Shown: piece by piece, positions 1-58,654 of the stretch
Position numbering within the stretch: position 1 is the first letter of the stretch
Layout of the letters: every line of letters starts with the position of its first letter
NCBI GenBank assembly: GCA_041662965.1
Contig: JBAZRI010000001.1
Span: 227,680-291,679 of the forward strand
Origin: Patescibacteria group bacterium
GTDB taxonomy: Bacteria; Patescibacteriota; Patescibacteriia; Patescibacteriales; GWC2-42-12
DNA: 64,000 nt
Reading direction: 5' to 3'
Position numbers and translations under genes: made by a program
The notes under the pieces: generated by a model
Databases searched by the model: none
What the model saw: only the letters and a program-made list of their open reading frames with translations
Told to the model about the DNA's origin: nothing

Positions 1-791
1 TGGGATTTTTTAGCGGCGCCTGTTTTTTAATGATCGGCGGCTGGCTGGACGATAAATATAATTTAAAACCGGCTTGGCAGATTATTTGGCCGGCGCTGGC
101 GATCGTGAGCGTTATCGCCGGCGGCGTGCAGATTGAAAAAATTACCAATCCCTTCGGCGGTTTTATTTATTTGGGCGCTTTGTCGGCTGTTTTAATCGCT
201 TTGTGGCTCTTAGGCATGATGTATACGACTAAGCTTTTGGACGGGCTTGACGGCTTAGTCAGTGGCATGACGGCTATCGGCGCGCTAGTGATTTTTTTAT
301 TTACCATGAGCGAGAAATATTATCAGCCCGACATCGGTCTGGCCGCTTTGATTTTAGCGGCCGCGACGCTCGGCTTTTTATTTTTTAACTGGCATCCGGC
401 GAAAATATTTTTAGGCGAAGGCGGGTCGCTTTTTCTAGGCTACGCCCTAGGCGTGCTTTCAATCATCTCGGGCGGTAAAATCGCCATCGCCTTATTGGTT
501 ATGGGCATACCGGTATTAGACGTGGCCTGGACTATCATTAGGCGCTTGGTTGCCGGTAAAAATCCTTTTAGGTTCGCGGATAATAAGCATCTGCATTTTC
601 GCTTGTTAAATATGGGCCTAGGCGTTAAAAAATCAGTTTTACTTTTTTACGGCGTTTCCATTATTTTCGGCTTATCCGCCTTATTTTTGCAAAGCCAAGG
701 CAAGGCGCTGGCCTTAGCCGCGCTCTTGGCTATTATGATATCGGTTATTATGTTTTTCGCTTATCTTGACAGAAAGAATAAAGTAGTTTAA
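1..791 (+). CDS. Undecaprenyl-phosphate sugar-phosphate transferase (WecA/TagO/MraY-like GT4 family), 5'-truncated by window edge
   Basis: The frame stays open upstream of the tracked ATG to position 3. Motifs seen: WLDDKY, LDGLDGL, HPAKIFLGEGGS, RFADNKHLHFRLL. Multiple TM segments. Confidence 0.8.
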   Translation, partial: GFFSGACFLMIGGWLDDKYNLKPAWQIIWPALAIVSVIAGGVQIEKITNPFGGFIYLGALSAVLIALWLLGMMYTTKLLDGLDGLVSGMTAIGALVIFLFTMSEKYYQPDIGLAALILAAATLGFLFFNWHPAKIFLGEGGSLFLGYALGVLSIISGGKIAIALLVMGIPVLDVAWTIIRRLVAGKNPFRFADNKHLHFRLLNMGLGVKKSVLLFYGVSIIFGLSALFLQSQGKALALAALLAIMISVIMFFAYLDRKNKVV

Positions 792-805
792 TATTATCTC
801 ATAAC

Positions 806-846: not shown

Positions 847-951
847 TTCACCCCGTTAGATATAATTGATAATTATAATGTTATCAATATAACAATCGGG
901 GTTTATCAAATTATATGGCAATTAAAAAAGATGAGATATCTAACGGGGTAA
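847..951 (+). promoter_or_regulatory. Start-codon-enclosing inverted repeat, copy 1 (TTCACCCCGTTAGATAT ... ATATCTAACGGGGTAA)
   Basis: A 14-nt perfect complement (849-863 vs 936-950) flanks the rplU ATG at 915. An inner hairpin ATTGATAA..TTATCAAT lies within the loop. The same architecture occurs at 46265-46351 and 50252-50339. Confidence 0.55.
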
Positions 952-4963: not shown

Positions 4964-6301
4964 ATGAAAAATATTAAAATAAAAATTTATACCTTAGGCT
5001 GTAAAGTTAATCAGTATGATTCGGGTAAACTAGCCGGCGAGCTGGTTCGGGCCGGCTTTATAACCGCGGACAAAAACGCCGATATAGCCGTAATCAATAG
5101 CTGCGCCGTGACTAAAACTGCCATAATTAAAAGCGGCCGCATGGTTAAATTGGCTAAAAAAGAAAACCCCAAAGCTAAAATCGTTTTAGCCGGCTGCTGG
5201 CCGAAAACCTATGGAATAAAGAATATTGCCGCTGATTTTATTATTGCCAAAGGCGAGGTCGGCGAGGCTATTAAAAAAATTGCGAATCGCTTCTCTCTAT
5301 TTAAGGATAAGATCTTTACGCCGGCTATCGCCGAGCTCGCGCTAACCGGCCGGACAAGGTATTTTATAAAAATTCAGGACGGCTGCGAGCAGTATTGCAG
5401 TTATTGCGTTATCCCTTACGCGCGCGGCAAATTAATTAGCAGGGGAGAGAAAGAAATTATTCGCGAAATTGAACGGGCGGTAAAAGCCGGATATCGGGAG
5501 ATCGTGCTGTCCGGAATCCATTTAGGGTTGTATGGAAAAACGAGCCAATTGTCATTGCGAGCGACCGGAGGGAGCGAAGCAATCTCACGTACTCGGAGCT
5601 TAACCGGAGATTGCCGCGTCGCTGGCGCTCCTCGCAATGACAAGCTGACGGCATTATTAAAAAAATTAGTTAAAATAAAAGATCTCGGCCGGATCAGGTT
5701 AAGTTCAATTGAAATCACCGAAGTATCGAGCGAGCTGATAAATTTAATGGCCGGGTCAAATAAAATTTGTAAGCATCTGCATATACCATTGCAGTCCGGC
5801 TCGGATAAAATTTTAAAATTAATGAATCGGCCATATGATGTAAAATATTTTTCTGGCCGGATAAAAAAAATTAGGCAAATTATGCCGGATATTGCCATTA
5901 CTACCGACGTGATTACCGGCTTCCCGGGCGAGACCGAGAAAGATTTTAAAGACACGGAAAAATTTATTAAGCGGATAAAATTCAGCCGTCTGCATGTGTT
6001 TCCATATTCGGCTCACGAAAAAACGCCGGCCGCTAAATTCCCCGGCCAAGTTAAAGAAAAAAATAAAGCGCAACGGGCGGAAAAATTAAGGCGGCTTGGC
6101 CTTAAGCTGGCTGAAGATTATAAAAAGAAATTCAAGGGCAGGGAGCTGGAGATTACCGTGGAGCGGATAAAGCAAGATGAAATTATCGGTAAAACCGAGT
6201 TTTATTTTGATATTTTATTTAAAAAGCGACAGCTTATCGGCGGAGAAGCCAGCCAAAGTAAAAAATTAATAGGCACGATTGTTAAGGTAAAAAACAATTA
6301 A
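4964..6301 (+). CDS. mtaB: MiaB/MtaB-family radical-SAM tRNA methylthiotransferase carrying an in-frame repeat insertion
   Basis: MTTase N-domain (IYTLGCKVNQYDS), radical-SAM cluster (GCEQYCSYCVIPYARG) and a TRAM-like C-terminus. Residues LSLRATGGSEAISRTRSLTGDCRVAGAPRNDK are encoded by a palindromic repeat. Confidence 0.85.
   Translation: MKNIKIKIYTLGCKVNQYDSGKLAGELVRAGFITADKNADIAVINSCAVTKTAIIKSGRMVKLAKKENPKAKIVLAGCWPKTYGIKNIAADFIIAKGEVGEAIKKIANRFSLFKDKIFTPAIAELALTGRTRYFIKIQDGCEQYCSYCVIPYARGKLISRGEKEIIREIERAVKAGYREIVLSGIHLGLYGKTSQLSLRATGGSEAISRTRSLTGDCRVAGAPRNDKLTALLKKLVKIKDLGRIRLSSIEITEVSSELINLMAGSNKICKHLHIPLQSGSDKILKLMNRPYDVKYFSGRIKKIRQIMPDIAITTDVITGFPGETEKDFKDTEKFIKRIKFSRLHVFPYSAHEKTPAAKFPGQVKEKNKAQRAEKLRRLGLKLAEDYKKKFKGRELEITVERIKQDEIIGKTEFYFDILFKKRQLIGGEASQSKKLIGTIVKVKNN
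5550..5642. repeat. TGTCAT-hairpin palindromic element inserted in frame inside the mtaB-like CDS
   Basis: 93 bp (31 codons), TGTCATTGCGAGCGACCGGAGGGAGCGAAGCAATCTC ... GAGATTGCCGCGTCGCTGGCGCTCCTCGCAATGACA. Near-identical in layout to 58563-58654. Confidence 0.85.
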
Positions 6302-34116: not shown

Positions 34117-34247
34117 TGTCATTGCGAGGAGACTTGTAATCAAGTCGACGAAGCAATCTCTGGTTAAGTTCAGAGTACGTGAGATTGTGAAGTTTATCCC
34201 GAGCGATAGCAAGGGACCTGCATTCCTTTCAGTCGCTCGCAATGACA
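34117..34247. repeat. TGTCAT-hairpin palindromic element, ORF-less copy in a divergent promoter region
   Basis: TGTCATTGCGAGGAGACTTGTAATCAAGTCGACGAAGCAATCTC ... GAGATTGTGAAG ... CAGTCGCTCGCAATGACA. Confidence 0.8.
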
Positions 34248-36879: not shown

Positions 36880-36885
36880 GAAAAA

Positions 36886-37025
36886 ATGTAAAATGTAAAT
36901 TTCAAAATGAAAAATGACAATGTAAAGTTACTTGTCCCGCCTCGCTTACGGGGTCGGGGAAAATTATAAAATTAGGCAATTTTACATTTTGAATTGTCAT
37001 TTTAAACTTTGATCTTTAAATTTTT
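36886..37025. repeat. AATGACAATG/TGTAAA-type AT-rich inverted repeat flanking a GC-rich core
   Basis: tgtaaaatgtaaatttcaaaatgaaaaatgacaatgtaaag ... cccgcctcgcttacggggtcgggg ... caattttacattttgaattgtcattttaaac. Confidence 0.6.
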
Positions 37026-37217
37026 AATTAGTTATACTATACATTATAGTATACGAGGGGTAATAGGGCAAATTATACTAGTCTGTTTACTAAAATTAGC
37101 CAATATATTTATTATTAGTTGATTTTTTTAGTGAATTGTGTTAAGATATAATTTAAATATTTAGTGTGGATAGGGGGAAGGGGATAGTTTTTTCAAAATT
37201 TAATTATGGAGGGGAAA

Positions 37218-40511: not shown

Positions 40512-40593
40512 TGTCATTGCGGGCTTGACCCGCAATCCAGAAACTTGTTAATTGCGATTAAACATGGATTCCGGCTCGTAGGCCGGAATGACA
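40512..40593. repeat. TGTCAT-hairpin palindromic element (variant stems) in the clpB 5' leader
   Basis: TGTCATTGCGGGCTTGACCCGCAATCC ... GGATTCCGGCTCGTAGGCCGGAATGACA. Confidence 0.75.
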
Positions 40594-46264: not shown

Positions 46265-46351
46265 TTCACCCTGTTAGAAGTCTTAAATAAACAAGATATC
46301 TGGCAGGGCAAATTATAATTGCAGTTTCTATGGGAACTTCTAACAGGGTAA
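46265..46351 (+). promoter_or_regulatory. Start-codon-enclosing inverted repeat, copy 2 (TTCACCCTGTTAGAAGT ... ACTTCTAACAGGGTAA)
   Basis: A 14-nt perfect complement flanks the ATG at 46330. Base changes relative to copy 1 are compensated in both arms. Confidence 0.55.
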
Positions 46352-47571
46352 AAAAAATTATTAAGTTAATCATACCTATATTATTTTTAGGCCTGTTTTT
46401 AACCGCGCCTGATTTTAGCTATGGCCAGGCTGAAGCCGGGCAAAACGAAGAAGTCAGGCAGATAAACAAAGATATTCAGGAAAAAAAAGACAGGATTAAA
46501 AAAATCCAGGATCAGCAGGCGGTCTATGAAGCGCTGATTAAGAAAAAACAGAGCGAAAAAGCCAGCCTGAATAACCAGCTGGCGATTTTAGAAAACCGTT
46601 TGGCTAAAGCCGCTTTGGATATTGAAAGCGCGCAGACCGAGATTGACCGGACGAATTTAGAGATAGACAAAGTCAACCTGGAAATTAAGGCTAAAGATGA
46701 GCAGATTTTAAATCAAAAAGAGCATATCGCGTCAGTCGTTAGATTGATGCAAAAGCAAGACGATAAATCAACTTTGGAAATATTGCTTCTGAACGGCACT
46801 TTGAATGATTTTGTCAGCCAGGTTAAATATTTGGAAGATATAAATAAAGAAATCGGCCAGAGTTTGGAAACTTTAAAGCAATACAAAAAAGATTTGGAAG
46901 CCCAGCAGAAAGATTTGAACGGAAAAAAGCGGGAATTATCCGGCTTGAAGGTAGAGCTGGAAAACAGAAAAAGCGGCCTGGCTACGGAGCAGCAAAACAA
47001 GGCGTATGTTTTAGACCAGACTAAATCTTCGGAAAGAGAATACCAAAGGTTATTGGCATTAGCTAAACAAGAACAACAGCGGGCTGAGTCCGATATCGTC
47101 AGCCTGGAAAAAACCGTCAGGGCAAAATTATCTAAAATTTCCGGCCAAGCCTTGGAATTCAATGACGCGGGTTTTATCTGGCCGGTGACGAAAAATATGG
47201 TTATGGCGACTTTCCATGATCCGGACTATCCGTTCCGCTATATTTTTGAGCATCCGGCCATAGATATCAGGGCCGGTCAAGGCAGCGCCTTAAGGGCCGC
47301 GGCTTCAGGCTACGTGGCCATAGCTAAAAACGCGGGTAAAGGCTATAGCTATATTATGATAGTGCATGGCAACGGGCTGGCTACGGTTTACGGGCATGTG
47401 TCAAAAATCTATGTCCAAGCCGATGAATACGTAGTCCAGGGGCAGGCGATCGGCCTTTCGGGCGGCATGCCGGGCACTAACGGAGCCGGCTCGTTAACCA
47501 CCGGGCCGCATCTGCATTTTGAAGTCCGCTTAAACGGAATTCCGGTTAATCCTTTGGAATATCTGCCGTAA
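46330..47571 (+). CDS. M23-family peptidase with an N-terminal coiled coil (EnvC-like)
   Basis: A long coiled coil followed by HPAIDIRAG..G..V.A..SG.V, GNGLATVYGHVS and GPHLHFEVRLNG. Confidence 0.85.
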   Translation: MGTSNRVKKIIKLIIPILFLGLFLTAPDFSYGQAEAGQNEEVRQINKDIQEKKDRIKKIQDQQAVYEALIKKKQSEKASLNNQLAILENRLAKAALDIESAQTEIDRTNLEIDKVNLEIKAKDEQILNQKEHIASVVRLMQKQDDKSTLEILLLNGTLNDFVSQVKYLEDINKEIGQSLETLKQYKKDLEAQQKDLNGKKRELSGLKVELENRKSGLATEQQNKAYVLDQTKSSEREYQRLLALAKQEQQRAESDIVSLEKTVRAKLSKISGQALEFNDAGFIWPVTKNMVMATFHDPDYPFRYIFEHPAIDIRAGQGSALRAAASGYVAIAKNAGKGYSYIMIVHGNGLATVYGHVSKIYVQADEYVVQGQAIGLSGGMPGTNGAGSLTTGPHLHFEVRLNGIPVNPLEYLP

Positions 47572-49494: not shown

Positions 49495-50277
49495 TTATTT
49501 TAAATTTATTATAATTTTTTTGACTATTAAGCCGATCAGCAGGGCGTAAGCGTGGTGCTCGCCGAAGCGGTTTATTGAATAATTTTTTGTTTCATTGCCG
49601 TCGGTAACCGCTACGGTTTGCCCGCTTGAGGTTTTTTCCGTTATCTCGCCCAGCCAATGATTATTAAGGCTAGGCGTGTTTTTTTCTAAACCGAAAAAAA
49701 TAACTTTGGCTTTTGTAAATCCGGAAAGTTTTTTAATCCGCCGGTTGTCGTAATTTAAAATTAAATAACCGTTTTCGTTAATTGACTCAACAAAATGCTT
49801 ATACTCCCCTACTAGGTCGTCCATATCGGAAAAACTTTCAATATAGCGCTGGGTAATATCGGTGACAATGGCGATTTTCGGCTTAACTAATGACATTAAA
49901 TATTTCATGTCGCCGCGCTTGTCTATGCCCAGGCCTAATACTAAAATTTTAGGGAAAGTTGGCTTAAATAACGATATAAAAGCCCGCCAAATAATCGGCA
50001 GCCAATTTTTATAAGAATTATAGCCGCTGGATAAATTCAGAATGGCTAGCGGCAGTCCGATTTCGGTATTGAAATTTTTAGGATTTGATCTAACGTCATA
50101 TCCGGCTTGTTCCAGTCGGCGCTTAATTTCGCTTTTAACGAAAAATTCATTGGTGCTGCCGGTGACGCTGATAATCAGCGGCCGATGAATCAATAAAACT
50201 ATTTTGGTAATAAATTTCAAATAGTATTTTAAGATTTGCTTGAAAATTATTTTCACCCCGTTAGAAATATCATTCAT
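49495..50277 (-). CDS. Truncated MurF paralog lacking the P-loop lysine and the C-terminal domain
   Basis: Aligns by eye to MurF residues ~50-300 (NFNTEIGLPLAIL, KILVLGLGIDKRGDMKYL), but GSVGKT is replaced by GSTNEF. 2-nt gap to ftsQ-like. Confidence 0.6.
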   Translation of the reverse strand: MNDISNGVKIIFKQILKYYLKFITKIVLLIHRPLIISVTGSTNEFFVKSEIKRRLEQAGYDVRSNPKNFNTEIGLPLAILNLSSGYNSYKNWLPIIWRAFISLFKPTFPKILVLGLGIDKRGDMKYLMSLVKPKIAIVTDITQRYIESFSDMDDLVGEYKHFVESINENGYLILNYDNRRIKKLSGFTKAKVIFFGLEKNTPSLNNHWLGEITEKTSSGQTVAVTDGNETKNYSINRFGEHHAYALLIGLIVKKIIINLK

Positions 50278-50339
50278 AGAGTTATATAGGTAAGATTAAT
50301 TATGGCCCGTTAATATAAATTAATTTCTAACGGGGTTCA
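50252..50339 (-). promoter_or_regulatory. Start-codon-enclosing inverted repeat, copy 3 (minus strand: GAACCCCGTTAGAAAT ... ATTTCTAACGGGGTGAA)
   Basis: A 14-nt perfect complement flanks the ATG at 50277. The upstream arm abuts the aminotransferase stop codon. Confidence 0.55.
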
Positions 50340-58562: not shown

Positions 58563-58654
58563 TGTCATTGCGAGCGACCGCAGGGAGCGCGGCAATCTCA
58601 CATACGTGGGATTTAACCAGAGATTGCTTCGTCGCTGCGCTTCTCGCAATGACA
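58563..58654. repeat. TGTCAT-hairpin palindromic element, ORF-less copy between GT4 and GT2
   Basis: TGTCATTGCGAGCGACCGCAGGGAGCGCGGCAATCTCACATACGTGGGATTTAACCAGAGATTGCTTCGTCGCTGCGCTTCTCGCAATGACA. Confidence 0.85.

Follow-up and report, generated by a model that had tools for sequence, protein, structure and literature searches.

The stretch analysed here, referred to as the window, comprises 64,000 nucleotides of contig JBAZRI010000001.1 (positions 227,680 to 291,679 of the forward strand, assembly GCA_041662965.1) from a Patescibacteria group bacterium. It contains three short inverted-repeat pairs, the arms of which enclose the ATG of the genes for ribosomal protein L21 (rplU), an M23 peptidase and a Mur-ligase family protein. 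We conclude that these pairs are very probably copies of a transposable element of the miniature inverted-repeat type (MITE), i.e., a non-autonomous cut-and-paste DNA transposon of ca. 70–110 bp, which landed in the start codons of the three genes. This identity is based on target duplications, sharp 13-bp ends, a near-identical 95-bp subfamily and precise empty sites in relatives. While insertion into a start codon is a known kind of event, the element family seems to be undescribed: a literature search by sequence, peptide and topic yielded no description of it.

Inverted-repeat pairs in the window

The three pairs were found where the original prediction had placed them, and the claim of 14 perfectly paired nucleotides per copy was borne out in each case, the 14 nt being composed of a 13-bp repeat and one A:T pair of the flank. 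The core corresponded to CCC(C/T)GTTAGA (left) and TCTAAC(G/A)GGG (right), and the inner bases (TAT, AGT, AAT) were mirrored in the partner arm. Likewise, the differences between copies (CCCCG/CGGGG versus CCCTG/CAGGG; ATAT, AAGT, AAAT) were compensated in the partner arm as had been described. The spacer of copy 3, previously given as 46 nt, measured 54 nt (50322–50269) between 13-bp arms. From repeat to repeat, the copies spanned 80–98 bp, and each contained a degenerate third, internal copy of the repeat. A search for the core pattern with up to two mismatches returned seven matches in the window against 1.36 expected, a number reached in none of 100 shuffles. A looser 13-mer search (up to three mismatches) gave 18 matches, fewer than the 29 expected by chance; at zero to two mismatches, the same search revealed only the three pairs and two 2-mismatch matches (36630, 42750). 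Predicted hairpins of the three copies had energies of –25 to –30 kcal/mol (z-scores –3.7 to –4.5). An assembly artefact was ruled out, as the loci recurred in NCBI, JGI, ENA and Logan assemblies, and two JGI samples were sequence-identical.

Terminal repeats and target duplication

The ends of the element were defined on an unbiased sample of 147 elements from metagenome contigs, collected with a pattern that left both flanks free. Fetched loci are designated by L-numbers (e.g., L123, L255) and total 1.7 Mb. The terminal inverted repeat comprised 13 bp, namely CCCCGTTAGA and three variable bases. At these variable positions (11, 12 and 13), partner arms agreed in 95, 91 and 77% of the elements compared to 56, 71 and 40% with shuffled partners, so that the covariation expected for further copies was indeed observed. 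From position 14 onward, agreement between the arms was at chance level. Perfect 4-bp direct repeats immediately outside the arms were present in 84 of the 147 elements, whereas shuffled partners yielded 16 (maximum 28 in 2000 shuffles), and a flank match existed at exactly 4 bp only. With strands collapsed, the duplication spectrum was TAAA (40), TGAA (25) and TCAA/TTGA (11), indicating T-N-N-A as the target. The sequence fits an alternative description equally well, in which the element would end in ACCCC...GGGGT and duplicate 2 bp within a T-NN-A target. Of the window copies, copy 3 has a perfect duplication (TGAA/TGAA), whereas that of copies 1 and 2 has diverged (TTCA/TAAA).

A 95-bp subfamily was found at 12 loci with unrelated flanks; its interiors were 90–98% identical and every copy had its own TAAA or TGAA duplication. 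Element size in the unbiased sample ranged from 58 to 95 bp (10th–90th percentile; full range 27–120 bp), too short to accommodate a transposase gene, and a third internal repeat copy lay beside one end in 56 of the 147 elements versus ca. 14 by chance.

The arms also contain GTTAGAT and ATCTAAC, which would fit the core and inverse-core consensus of an integron attC site or cassette boundary. Copy 1 contains strings matching GTTRRRY and RYYYAAC, and many of the host phyla carry integrons. However, the order is reversed: it is GTT...AAC here, enclosed by CCCC/GGGG as the outermost bases, while AAC...GTT is outermost in attC. Moreover, the copies are single, 4–45 kb apart, at rplU, M23 peptidase and Mur ligase rather than in arrays, and target duplications are foreign to integron recombination. 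The probability of an integron origin is thus practically negligible.

Empty sites in relatives

Precise empty sites (ATGAAA...) were found in relatives for all three loci. Without the element, the native starts are MKIAVIK (L21), MKKIIKL (peptidase) and MKIIFKQ (Mur ligase), located exactly at the V/K junction of the extended proteins. The same junction coincides with the native start in dozens of further genes, among them GT2, Pth, ProS, L3 and response regulators.

For rplU, many close relatives (up to 88% identity) encode an L21 of 100–101 residues starting with MKIAVIKTGG. In the window, the Pfam domain of L21 begins at residue 14, and the extension amounts to 12–13 residues, in agreement with the predicted N-terminal extension. 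The empty site in L125 reads ...gacaaaaatATGAAAATAGCAG (longer stretch ...gggaatgacaaaaatATGAAAATAGCAG), while the filled site in L129 reads ...gacaaaaatATGAA–element–TGAAAATAGCAG (longer stretch ...gggaatgacaaaaatATGAA, followed by the element CCCCGTTAGAAAT...ATTTCTAACGGGG and TGAAAATAGCAG). The comparison of L125 and L129 corresponds to a precise insertion with TGAA duplicated. The rplU lineage of the window (window, L127, L130, L131, L123) carries a second insertion in this start codon, which is independent of that in L129 and differs from it in flanks and interior. Another small palindromic element, GGATTCCCGCCTGCGCGGGAATGACA, lies directly upstream of the rplU start in L125 (ca. 1468–1495) and L129 (ca. 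340–370), and three different small elements have gathered at this spot across related genomes. Two further L21 relatives, P0026 and P0031, carry different N-terminal extensions (MSAKGESALGGK and MNNNMSAKGGSAFGGK); a different inserted element may have struck the same start codon there.

The empty site of the M23 peptidase (L255) reads TATAATagcattATGAAAAAAATT (longer TGcTATAATagcattATGAAAAAAATT). Filled sites in the window, L253 and L254 show TATAAT, six nucleotides, ATTCA, the element and TAAAAAAAATT, with the same spacing as in L255. The empty Mur-ligase site (L258) is ggcttATGAAAATG, in which the stop codon of the aminotransferase gene and the ATG overlap within ATGA. At the filled site of the window, this upstream stop codon is retained by the left TGAA, and the right TGAA runs on into the gene.

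Inverted repeats around a segment with a start codon would also be expected of an inverton, in which a site-specific recombinase flips the 46–72 bp between the repeats and thereby turns the gene on or off; the symmetry of the repeat, which gives an SNGV read-out in either orientation, is consistent with such a switch. Nevertheless, the loop had the same orientation in four rplU and four peptidase orthologs, the targets are essential housekeeping genes, and the segments are very short for recombinase synapsis. As an inverton would furthermore leave the 4-bp direct repeats and the empty sites unexplained, we consider it barely credible.

The features of the three MITE copies and their genes are given below by position in the window and strand.

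766–794, plus strand: promoter-like site TTGACA-17-TAATAT, upstream of and outside the element; kept in relatives without the element.
847–850, plus: left flank of copy 1, TTCA; left TGAA target position, now its complement (ATGAA to ATTCA, old ATG destroyed). The assignment is based on the spacing, which fits empty sites L121/L125, and on the independent young insertion L129, which has ATGAA there.
851–863, plus: left terminal inverted repeat of copy 1, CCCCGTTAGATAT.
864–935 (72 nt), plus: interior of copy 1, with degenerate third repeat AATCGGGG at 894–901 and new ATG at 915–917.
936–948, plus: right terminal inverted repeat of copy 1, ATATCTAACGGGG, read I-S-N-G.
949–952, plus: right flank of copy 1, TAAA (TGAA in ortholog L123); G948 and TA form the Val codon replacing the L21 Met.
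915–1253, plus: rplU (ribosomal protein L21), with 12-residue element-encoded extension MAIKKDEISNGV.
46265–46268, plus: left flank of copy 2, TTCA, former TGAA of ATGAA. The assignment is based on empty site L255, which reads TATAAT-agcatt-ATGAAAAAAATT with equal spacing.
46269–46281, plus: left terminal inverted repeat of copy 2, CCCTGTTAGAAGT.
46282–46335 (54 nt), plus: interior of copy 2, with degenerate third repeat TCTGGCAGGG at ca. 46299–46308 and new ATG at 46330.
46336–46348, plus: right terminal inverted repeat of copy 2, ACTTCTAACAGGG, read T-S-N-R.
46349–46352, plus: right flank of copy 2, TAAA, former TGAA; GTA (Val) in place of the Met of MKKIIKLI...
46330–47571, plus: M23 peptidase gene, with 6-residue extension MGTSNRV.
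50336–50339, minus: left target duplication of copy 3, TGAA; holds the aminotransferase TGA stop (50339–50337) and forms the old ATG with A50340.
50323–50335, minus: left terminal inverted repeat of copy 3, CCCCGTTAGAAAT.
50269–50322 (54 nt), minus: interior of copy 3, with degenerate third repeat TTAACGGGCC and new ATG at 50277–50275.
50256–50268, minus: right terminal inverted repeat of copy 3, ATTTCTAACGGGG, read I-S-N-G.
50252–50255, minus: right target duplication of copy 3, TGAA; GTG in place of the Met of MKIIFKQ... (empty site L258, ggcttATGAAAATGATT).
49495–50277, minus: Mur-ligase family gene, with 7-residue extension, MNDISNGV.

Probable replacement of the start codon

The anatomy of the three copies suggests how a MITE insertion could be tolerated at a gene start. 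In each gene, insertion into the TGAA of A/TGAA/A, which encodes Met-Lys and represents the commonest bacterial start, severed the old ATG from the gene, and the left end then reads ATGAACCCCGTTAGAAAT (MNPVRN). At the right end, GGGG, TGAA and A join to GGG-GTG-AAA, so that Val (GTG or GTA) has taken the place of Met. Translation would start at an in-frame ATG within the element, and read-out through the right repeat in the frame TCT-AAC-GGG-G adds x-S-N-G-V before the native second residue K. The two other frames of TCTAACGGGGTGA contain TAA or TGA. The constant reading of the downstream arm as (I/T)SN(G/R)VK, which had been pointed out before and was confirmed for all three genes, is therefore forced by stop codons. 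The only usable ATG of all three window genes lies inside the element, and start-codon rescue of this kind would yield the N-terminal peptides MAIKKDEISNGVK (L21) and MGTSNRVK (peptidase).

An in-frame ATG in the loop was present in 23 of 62 elements in gene direction, in six of 62 in the opposite direction and in 13 of 162 copies without an open reading frame (ORF). The idea that the ATG is an intrinsic part of every element was discarded, as only 8–10% of the copies outside gene starts have one. Subfamilies with a conserved outward-reading ATG recurred at unrelated genes in different phyla, namely ATGAAAATTTCTAAC (MKISNGV), TTATGGCAAAA... (MA(K/Q)..KISNGV; this subfamily includes the rplU copy) and MVNQISNGV. 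Survivorship is a likely explanation, with start-codon insertions persisting only where the copy happens to supply a start.

Copies 1 and 2 appear to be old: the left ATGAA would have become ATTCA and the right GTG would have become GTA, which removes both leftover start codons. The perfect TGAA/TGAA duplication was found in copy 3 and L129. TTCA is the exact complement of TGAA, GTG is still present in ortholog L123, and the combination of A-TTCA on the left and TAAA on the right also occurred at start-codon copies in other phyla (L001, L024, L045, L072, L092). These flank changes were presumably favoured later for silencing the leftover starts. Three apparent motifs, a Shine-Dalgarno-like GGGGTGA, tandem G.A pairs at the base of the stem and a T-arm-like GGGGTTCA, were all accounted for by the TGAA target duplication.

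Distribution across genes and phyla

A first scan with a two-arm pattern (one genome per species, one flank fixed) revealed at least 120 loci. Among the 80 loci listed, 36 were labelled Patescibacteria, 11 Planctomycetota, 10 Deltaproteobacteria or Desulfobacterota, four Omnitrophota, four Nitrospirota, three Gammaproteobacteria and one Bacteroidetes, while 11 were unclassified. The arms occurred almost only as left–right pairs, 19–100 nt apart, and a partner was found within 250 nt for 594 of 600 arm occurrences. At about 85 pairs, a long ORF traversed the right arm as SNGV, and an ATG lay 9–36 nt upstream. The genes concerned were unrelated housekeeping genes, i.e., gyrA, pnp, proS, rplC, frr, pth, murC, glycosyltransferases, response regulators and pilins, and the familiar protein N-terminus began at the V of SNGV/K (e.g., ...ISNGV/KLSIVIPAYNEE, /KKILFVEDE, /KLIIGLGNPG).

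In the unbiased set, about one third of the copies were intergenic, about one quarter had a gene stop inside or at the element, about one third touched an N-terminus and ca. 7% lay in frame within genes. The element is thus MITE-like in its placement, since copies occupy all positions expected of a MITE. The association of further copies with start codons, as originally anticipated, holds for only about a third of them. The sum of length and duplication was divisible by three in 61 of 114 de-duplicated elements (p = 7e-6), in line with tolerance within coding sequence. In L070 (minus strand, ca. 3572) and L158 (7246–8457 and 9568–10122), proteins contain the whole element as an in-frame translation (..NPVRN..SNGVK..), namely Fpg/MutM internally, a MurD-like protein close to its C-terminus and MurG at its N-terminus, the old ATG being still in use in MurG. 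Two 120-bp composite copies in L164 (2819–2938 and 4069–4188) were 100% identical, had near-identical flanks and enclosed a HigB/HigA-like toxin–antitoxin pair, an arrangement that resembles a composite mobile unit or the product of a segmental duplication. In L017 (954–1044), tandem duplication of the right arm gave rise to MNKTSNGVNKTSNGVN at the start of a NusA-like gene.

The recurrence of one peptide on many unrelated proteins could be taken as the mark of a conserved N-terminal tag, x-ISNGVK, selected at the protein level, e.g., for targeting or degradation. Several observations contradict this assumption. The left arm, although non-coding, complements the right one exactly, the sequence is also located in intergenic regions, at 3′ ends and in both orientations, and the peptide decays in some orthologs (SNPTK, YNGAK, FNGVK). 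Moreover, the frame is imposed by the stop codons in the repeat. We therefore regard selection for a peptide tag as highly improbable.

Promoters around the copies

The original prediction had proposed a mobile cassette that donates both a promoter and a start codon. Mobility was supported by the duplications, the empty sites and the multi-copy subfamily, and the start codon was supported as well, but the promoter was not. TATAAT-like strings do occur in the AT-rich loops, as had been noted; however, a consensus promoter scan called no promoter inside loops 1 and 2. Promoter-like sites of rplU and the peptidase lie upstream of the element and are also present at the empty sites of relatives.

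The promoter-like site upstream of rplU is located inside the end of a glycosyltransferase gene and is followed by a terminator-like hairpin (808–821) and a T-run. Since the whole arrangement (TTGACA-17-TAATAT and hairpin, 766–836) is conserved in relatives with and without the element, it may represent an L21 leader or attenuator. The peptidase gene has a TGnTATAAT site upstream of the element. At the empty site L255 (ca. 280–303), TGcTATAAT stands only 6 nt before the ATG, suggesting that the peptidase mRNA could be leaderless in relatives; in the window, the element sits between the TATAAT box and the gene. Translation of the Mur ligase is coupled to that of the upstream gene. Promoter donation is thus unproven and unnecessary at the three window genes. 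In all three copies, either the likely promoter precedes both arms or the arms are part of an operon, and the mRNA could fold into the hairpin around the new ATG.

Conservation of the arms

A number of findings weigh against the simple picture of an inert MITE remnant with a rescued start. First, the in-loop ATG is a putative start codon, deduced from the reading frames. Second, copies 1 and 2 have no perfect duplication (TTCA versus TAAA), and their insertional origin is derived from the empty sites in relatives and from the proposed later flank changes. Third, the window genome is no closer to relatives with filled sites (0.79–0.88 amino-acid identity) than to those with empty sites (0.89), which indicates that the history was not one clean insertion. 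Fourth, an autonomous partner, i.e., the same ends with a transposase gene, was not found in the 1.7 Mb of fetched loci or in plasmids, large collections being unscanned for spacings of 1–3 kb. This search covered long-range arm pairs with equal flanks, unpaired arms and relaxed arms with up to four mismatches; all candidates enclosed ordinary genes (murG/ftsW, gas-vesicle genes, toxin–antitoxin pairs). A plasmid collection queried with the 95-bp subfamily gave zero matches, and viral contigs contained only two copies, so that phages are no obvious carrier. Finally, the arms of old orthologous copies are far better conserved than the loops or fourfold-degenerate sites, which is unlike a decaying inert transposon remnant. 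In the peptidase lineage, 23 non-coding bases over the left arm and the right arm were identical in the window, L253 and L254, while the loop was ca. 70% identical and fourfold sites were 0.46–0.55 identical; the rplU lineage was similar.

This conservation raises the question of an acquired function, i.e., a transposed element whose hairpin the host would now keep as a cis element tuning initiation or mRNA stability. Such an element could work as an RNA hairpin around the start codon, at the DNA level, or by binding a sequence-specific protein, e.g., a transposase-derived one. Besides the identity of the arms in the peptidase and rplU lineages, two compensated changes among orthologs speak for this possibility (rplU GATAT/ATATC versus GAAAT/ATTTC in L131; peptidase GAAGT/ACTTC versus GAAAT/ATTTC in L252), as do G.U-compatible changes in L127 and L252. 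The arms would be transcribed in all three copies, and the predicted stems are strong. The arms were intact in six of nine ortholog lineages. On the other hand, they decayed plainly in L130 and L252, and L123 has lost the left arm, yet keeps the gene, the ATG, the right arm and the extension. The presumed link of the SNGVK extension to the upstream arm is therefore broken in this L21 ortholog. Gene-oriented stems contained 16 G.U and 15 A.C mismatches; the lack of a G.U excess on the sense strand gives no sign of selection on RNA pairing. The arm sequence rather than mere pairing is conserved, unlike in a simple RNA stem, and most copies lie away from gene starts. Rfam yielded no family at the gathering threshold over the whole window, and permissive scans of copies 1 and 3 returned nothing beyond chance matches of the microRNA-hairpin type, far below the gathering score. 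Template switching is an established mutational route by which quasi-palindromes are corrected in one step, and the compensated changes could have arisen in this way. Taken together, we regard an acquired function, in whichever of these forms, as unlikely.

Hairpin potential and covariation both follow from the MITE structure itself. The hairpin is a consequence of the two ends being inverted copies, and covariation reflects subfamilies that differ at repeat positions 11–13, both ends of a copy presumably stemming from one source and having to fit the same transposase. A shared RNA or DNA structure regulating initiation, the second proposal of the original prediction, explains nothing in addition, and both the location of most copies and the loss of the upstream arm in L123 speak against it; as a secondary, acquired role it is unlikely but conceivable.

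Other repeats in the window

A second family of short inverted-repeat elements with arms GTCATTGCGAGC gave nine arm matches in the window versus 0.2 expected. It forms four pairs of 90–137 bp (1292–1428, 5551–5641, 34118–34246, 58564–58653), one of which lies directly 3′ of rplU; a lone arm was located at 40513. Long AT-rich imperfect inverted repeats with 31–42 nt per arm and ATGACAAAT- and AATGTAAA-like units were located at 2036–2133, between recR and a ybaB-like gene, and at 36885–37029.

Relation to known elements and significance

The present element resembles bacterial MITEs such as Correia/CREE of Neisseria, RUP, ERIC and Nezha in that it is short and non-coding, has terminal inverted repeats and a fixed short duplication, and occurs in many copies. 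It differs from these four in its repeat sequence and in its occurrence in at least six phyla rather than one genus, and from known bacterial MITEs in combining very diverse interiors with nearly invariant 13-bp ends. Correia and RUP elements have TA targets. The 4-bp T-N-N-A of the present element also contrasts with the 5′-TA-3′ at both ends of ERIC-type elements (PMC3184786). Bacterial MITEs are mostly found at gene borders, form hairpins when transcribed and can alter the expression of neighbouring genes (PMC3184786). Rickettsia palindromic elements are palindromic repeats that reside in frame inside protein-coding genes and are translated (PMC3184786). In analogy, the whole present element is readable as NPVRN...ISNGVK (MurG, Fpg, MurD), and its lengths are enriched for multiples of three. 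In contrast to the Rickettsia elements, it shows clear target duplications, favours gene ends and especially the start codon, and has different hosts; the likeness described here is one of behaviour. Neisseria REP2 and Borrelia inverted-repeat units are comparable as repeats that supply the start of a gene, but they are located upstream of it, whereas the present element splits and replaces the original start codon. As a source of the transposase, IS1380 or piggyBac may be named as a lead only, no transposase having been found; both presumably share a 4-bp duplication (4–5 bp for IS1380) and CC(C) ends. The piggyBac repeat CCCTAGAAAG has TAGAAA in common with CCCCGTTAGAAAT, again no more than a lead, and the target of the present element, T-N-N-A, is not strictly TTAA.

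The element is notable for its spread over phyla, for the replacement of start codons in essential genes and for the unusually strong conservation of its ends. This strong conservation in old copies could point to domestication. In a quite unlikely extension of this thought, the fixed 13-bp ends would be kept by the host since they are read by a transposase-derived DNA- or RNA-binding protein, or since the hairpin itself acts, giving housekeeping starts a shared control. If true, one control would govern translation initiation in dozens of housekeeping genes (rplU, rplC, gyrA, pnp, proS, frr, murC/G and others), and this wiring would have arisen in small-genome bacteria of the Candidate Phyla Radiation (CPR) and, in parallel, in several other phyla.

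For annotation, the finding means that gene callers will assign many housekeeping proteins of CPR, groundwater and sediment bacteria either a false-looking, probably real x-ISNGVK extension or a wrong start, and knowing the element allows such extensions to be recognised. The occurrence of a single MITE family in at least six phyla, with hardly any change at its ends, implies that its transposase travels widely. Furthermore, essential genes, even those of ribosomal proteins, can survive a split start codon if the element brings an ATG and an open frame.

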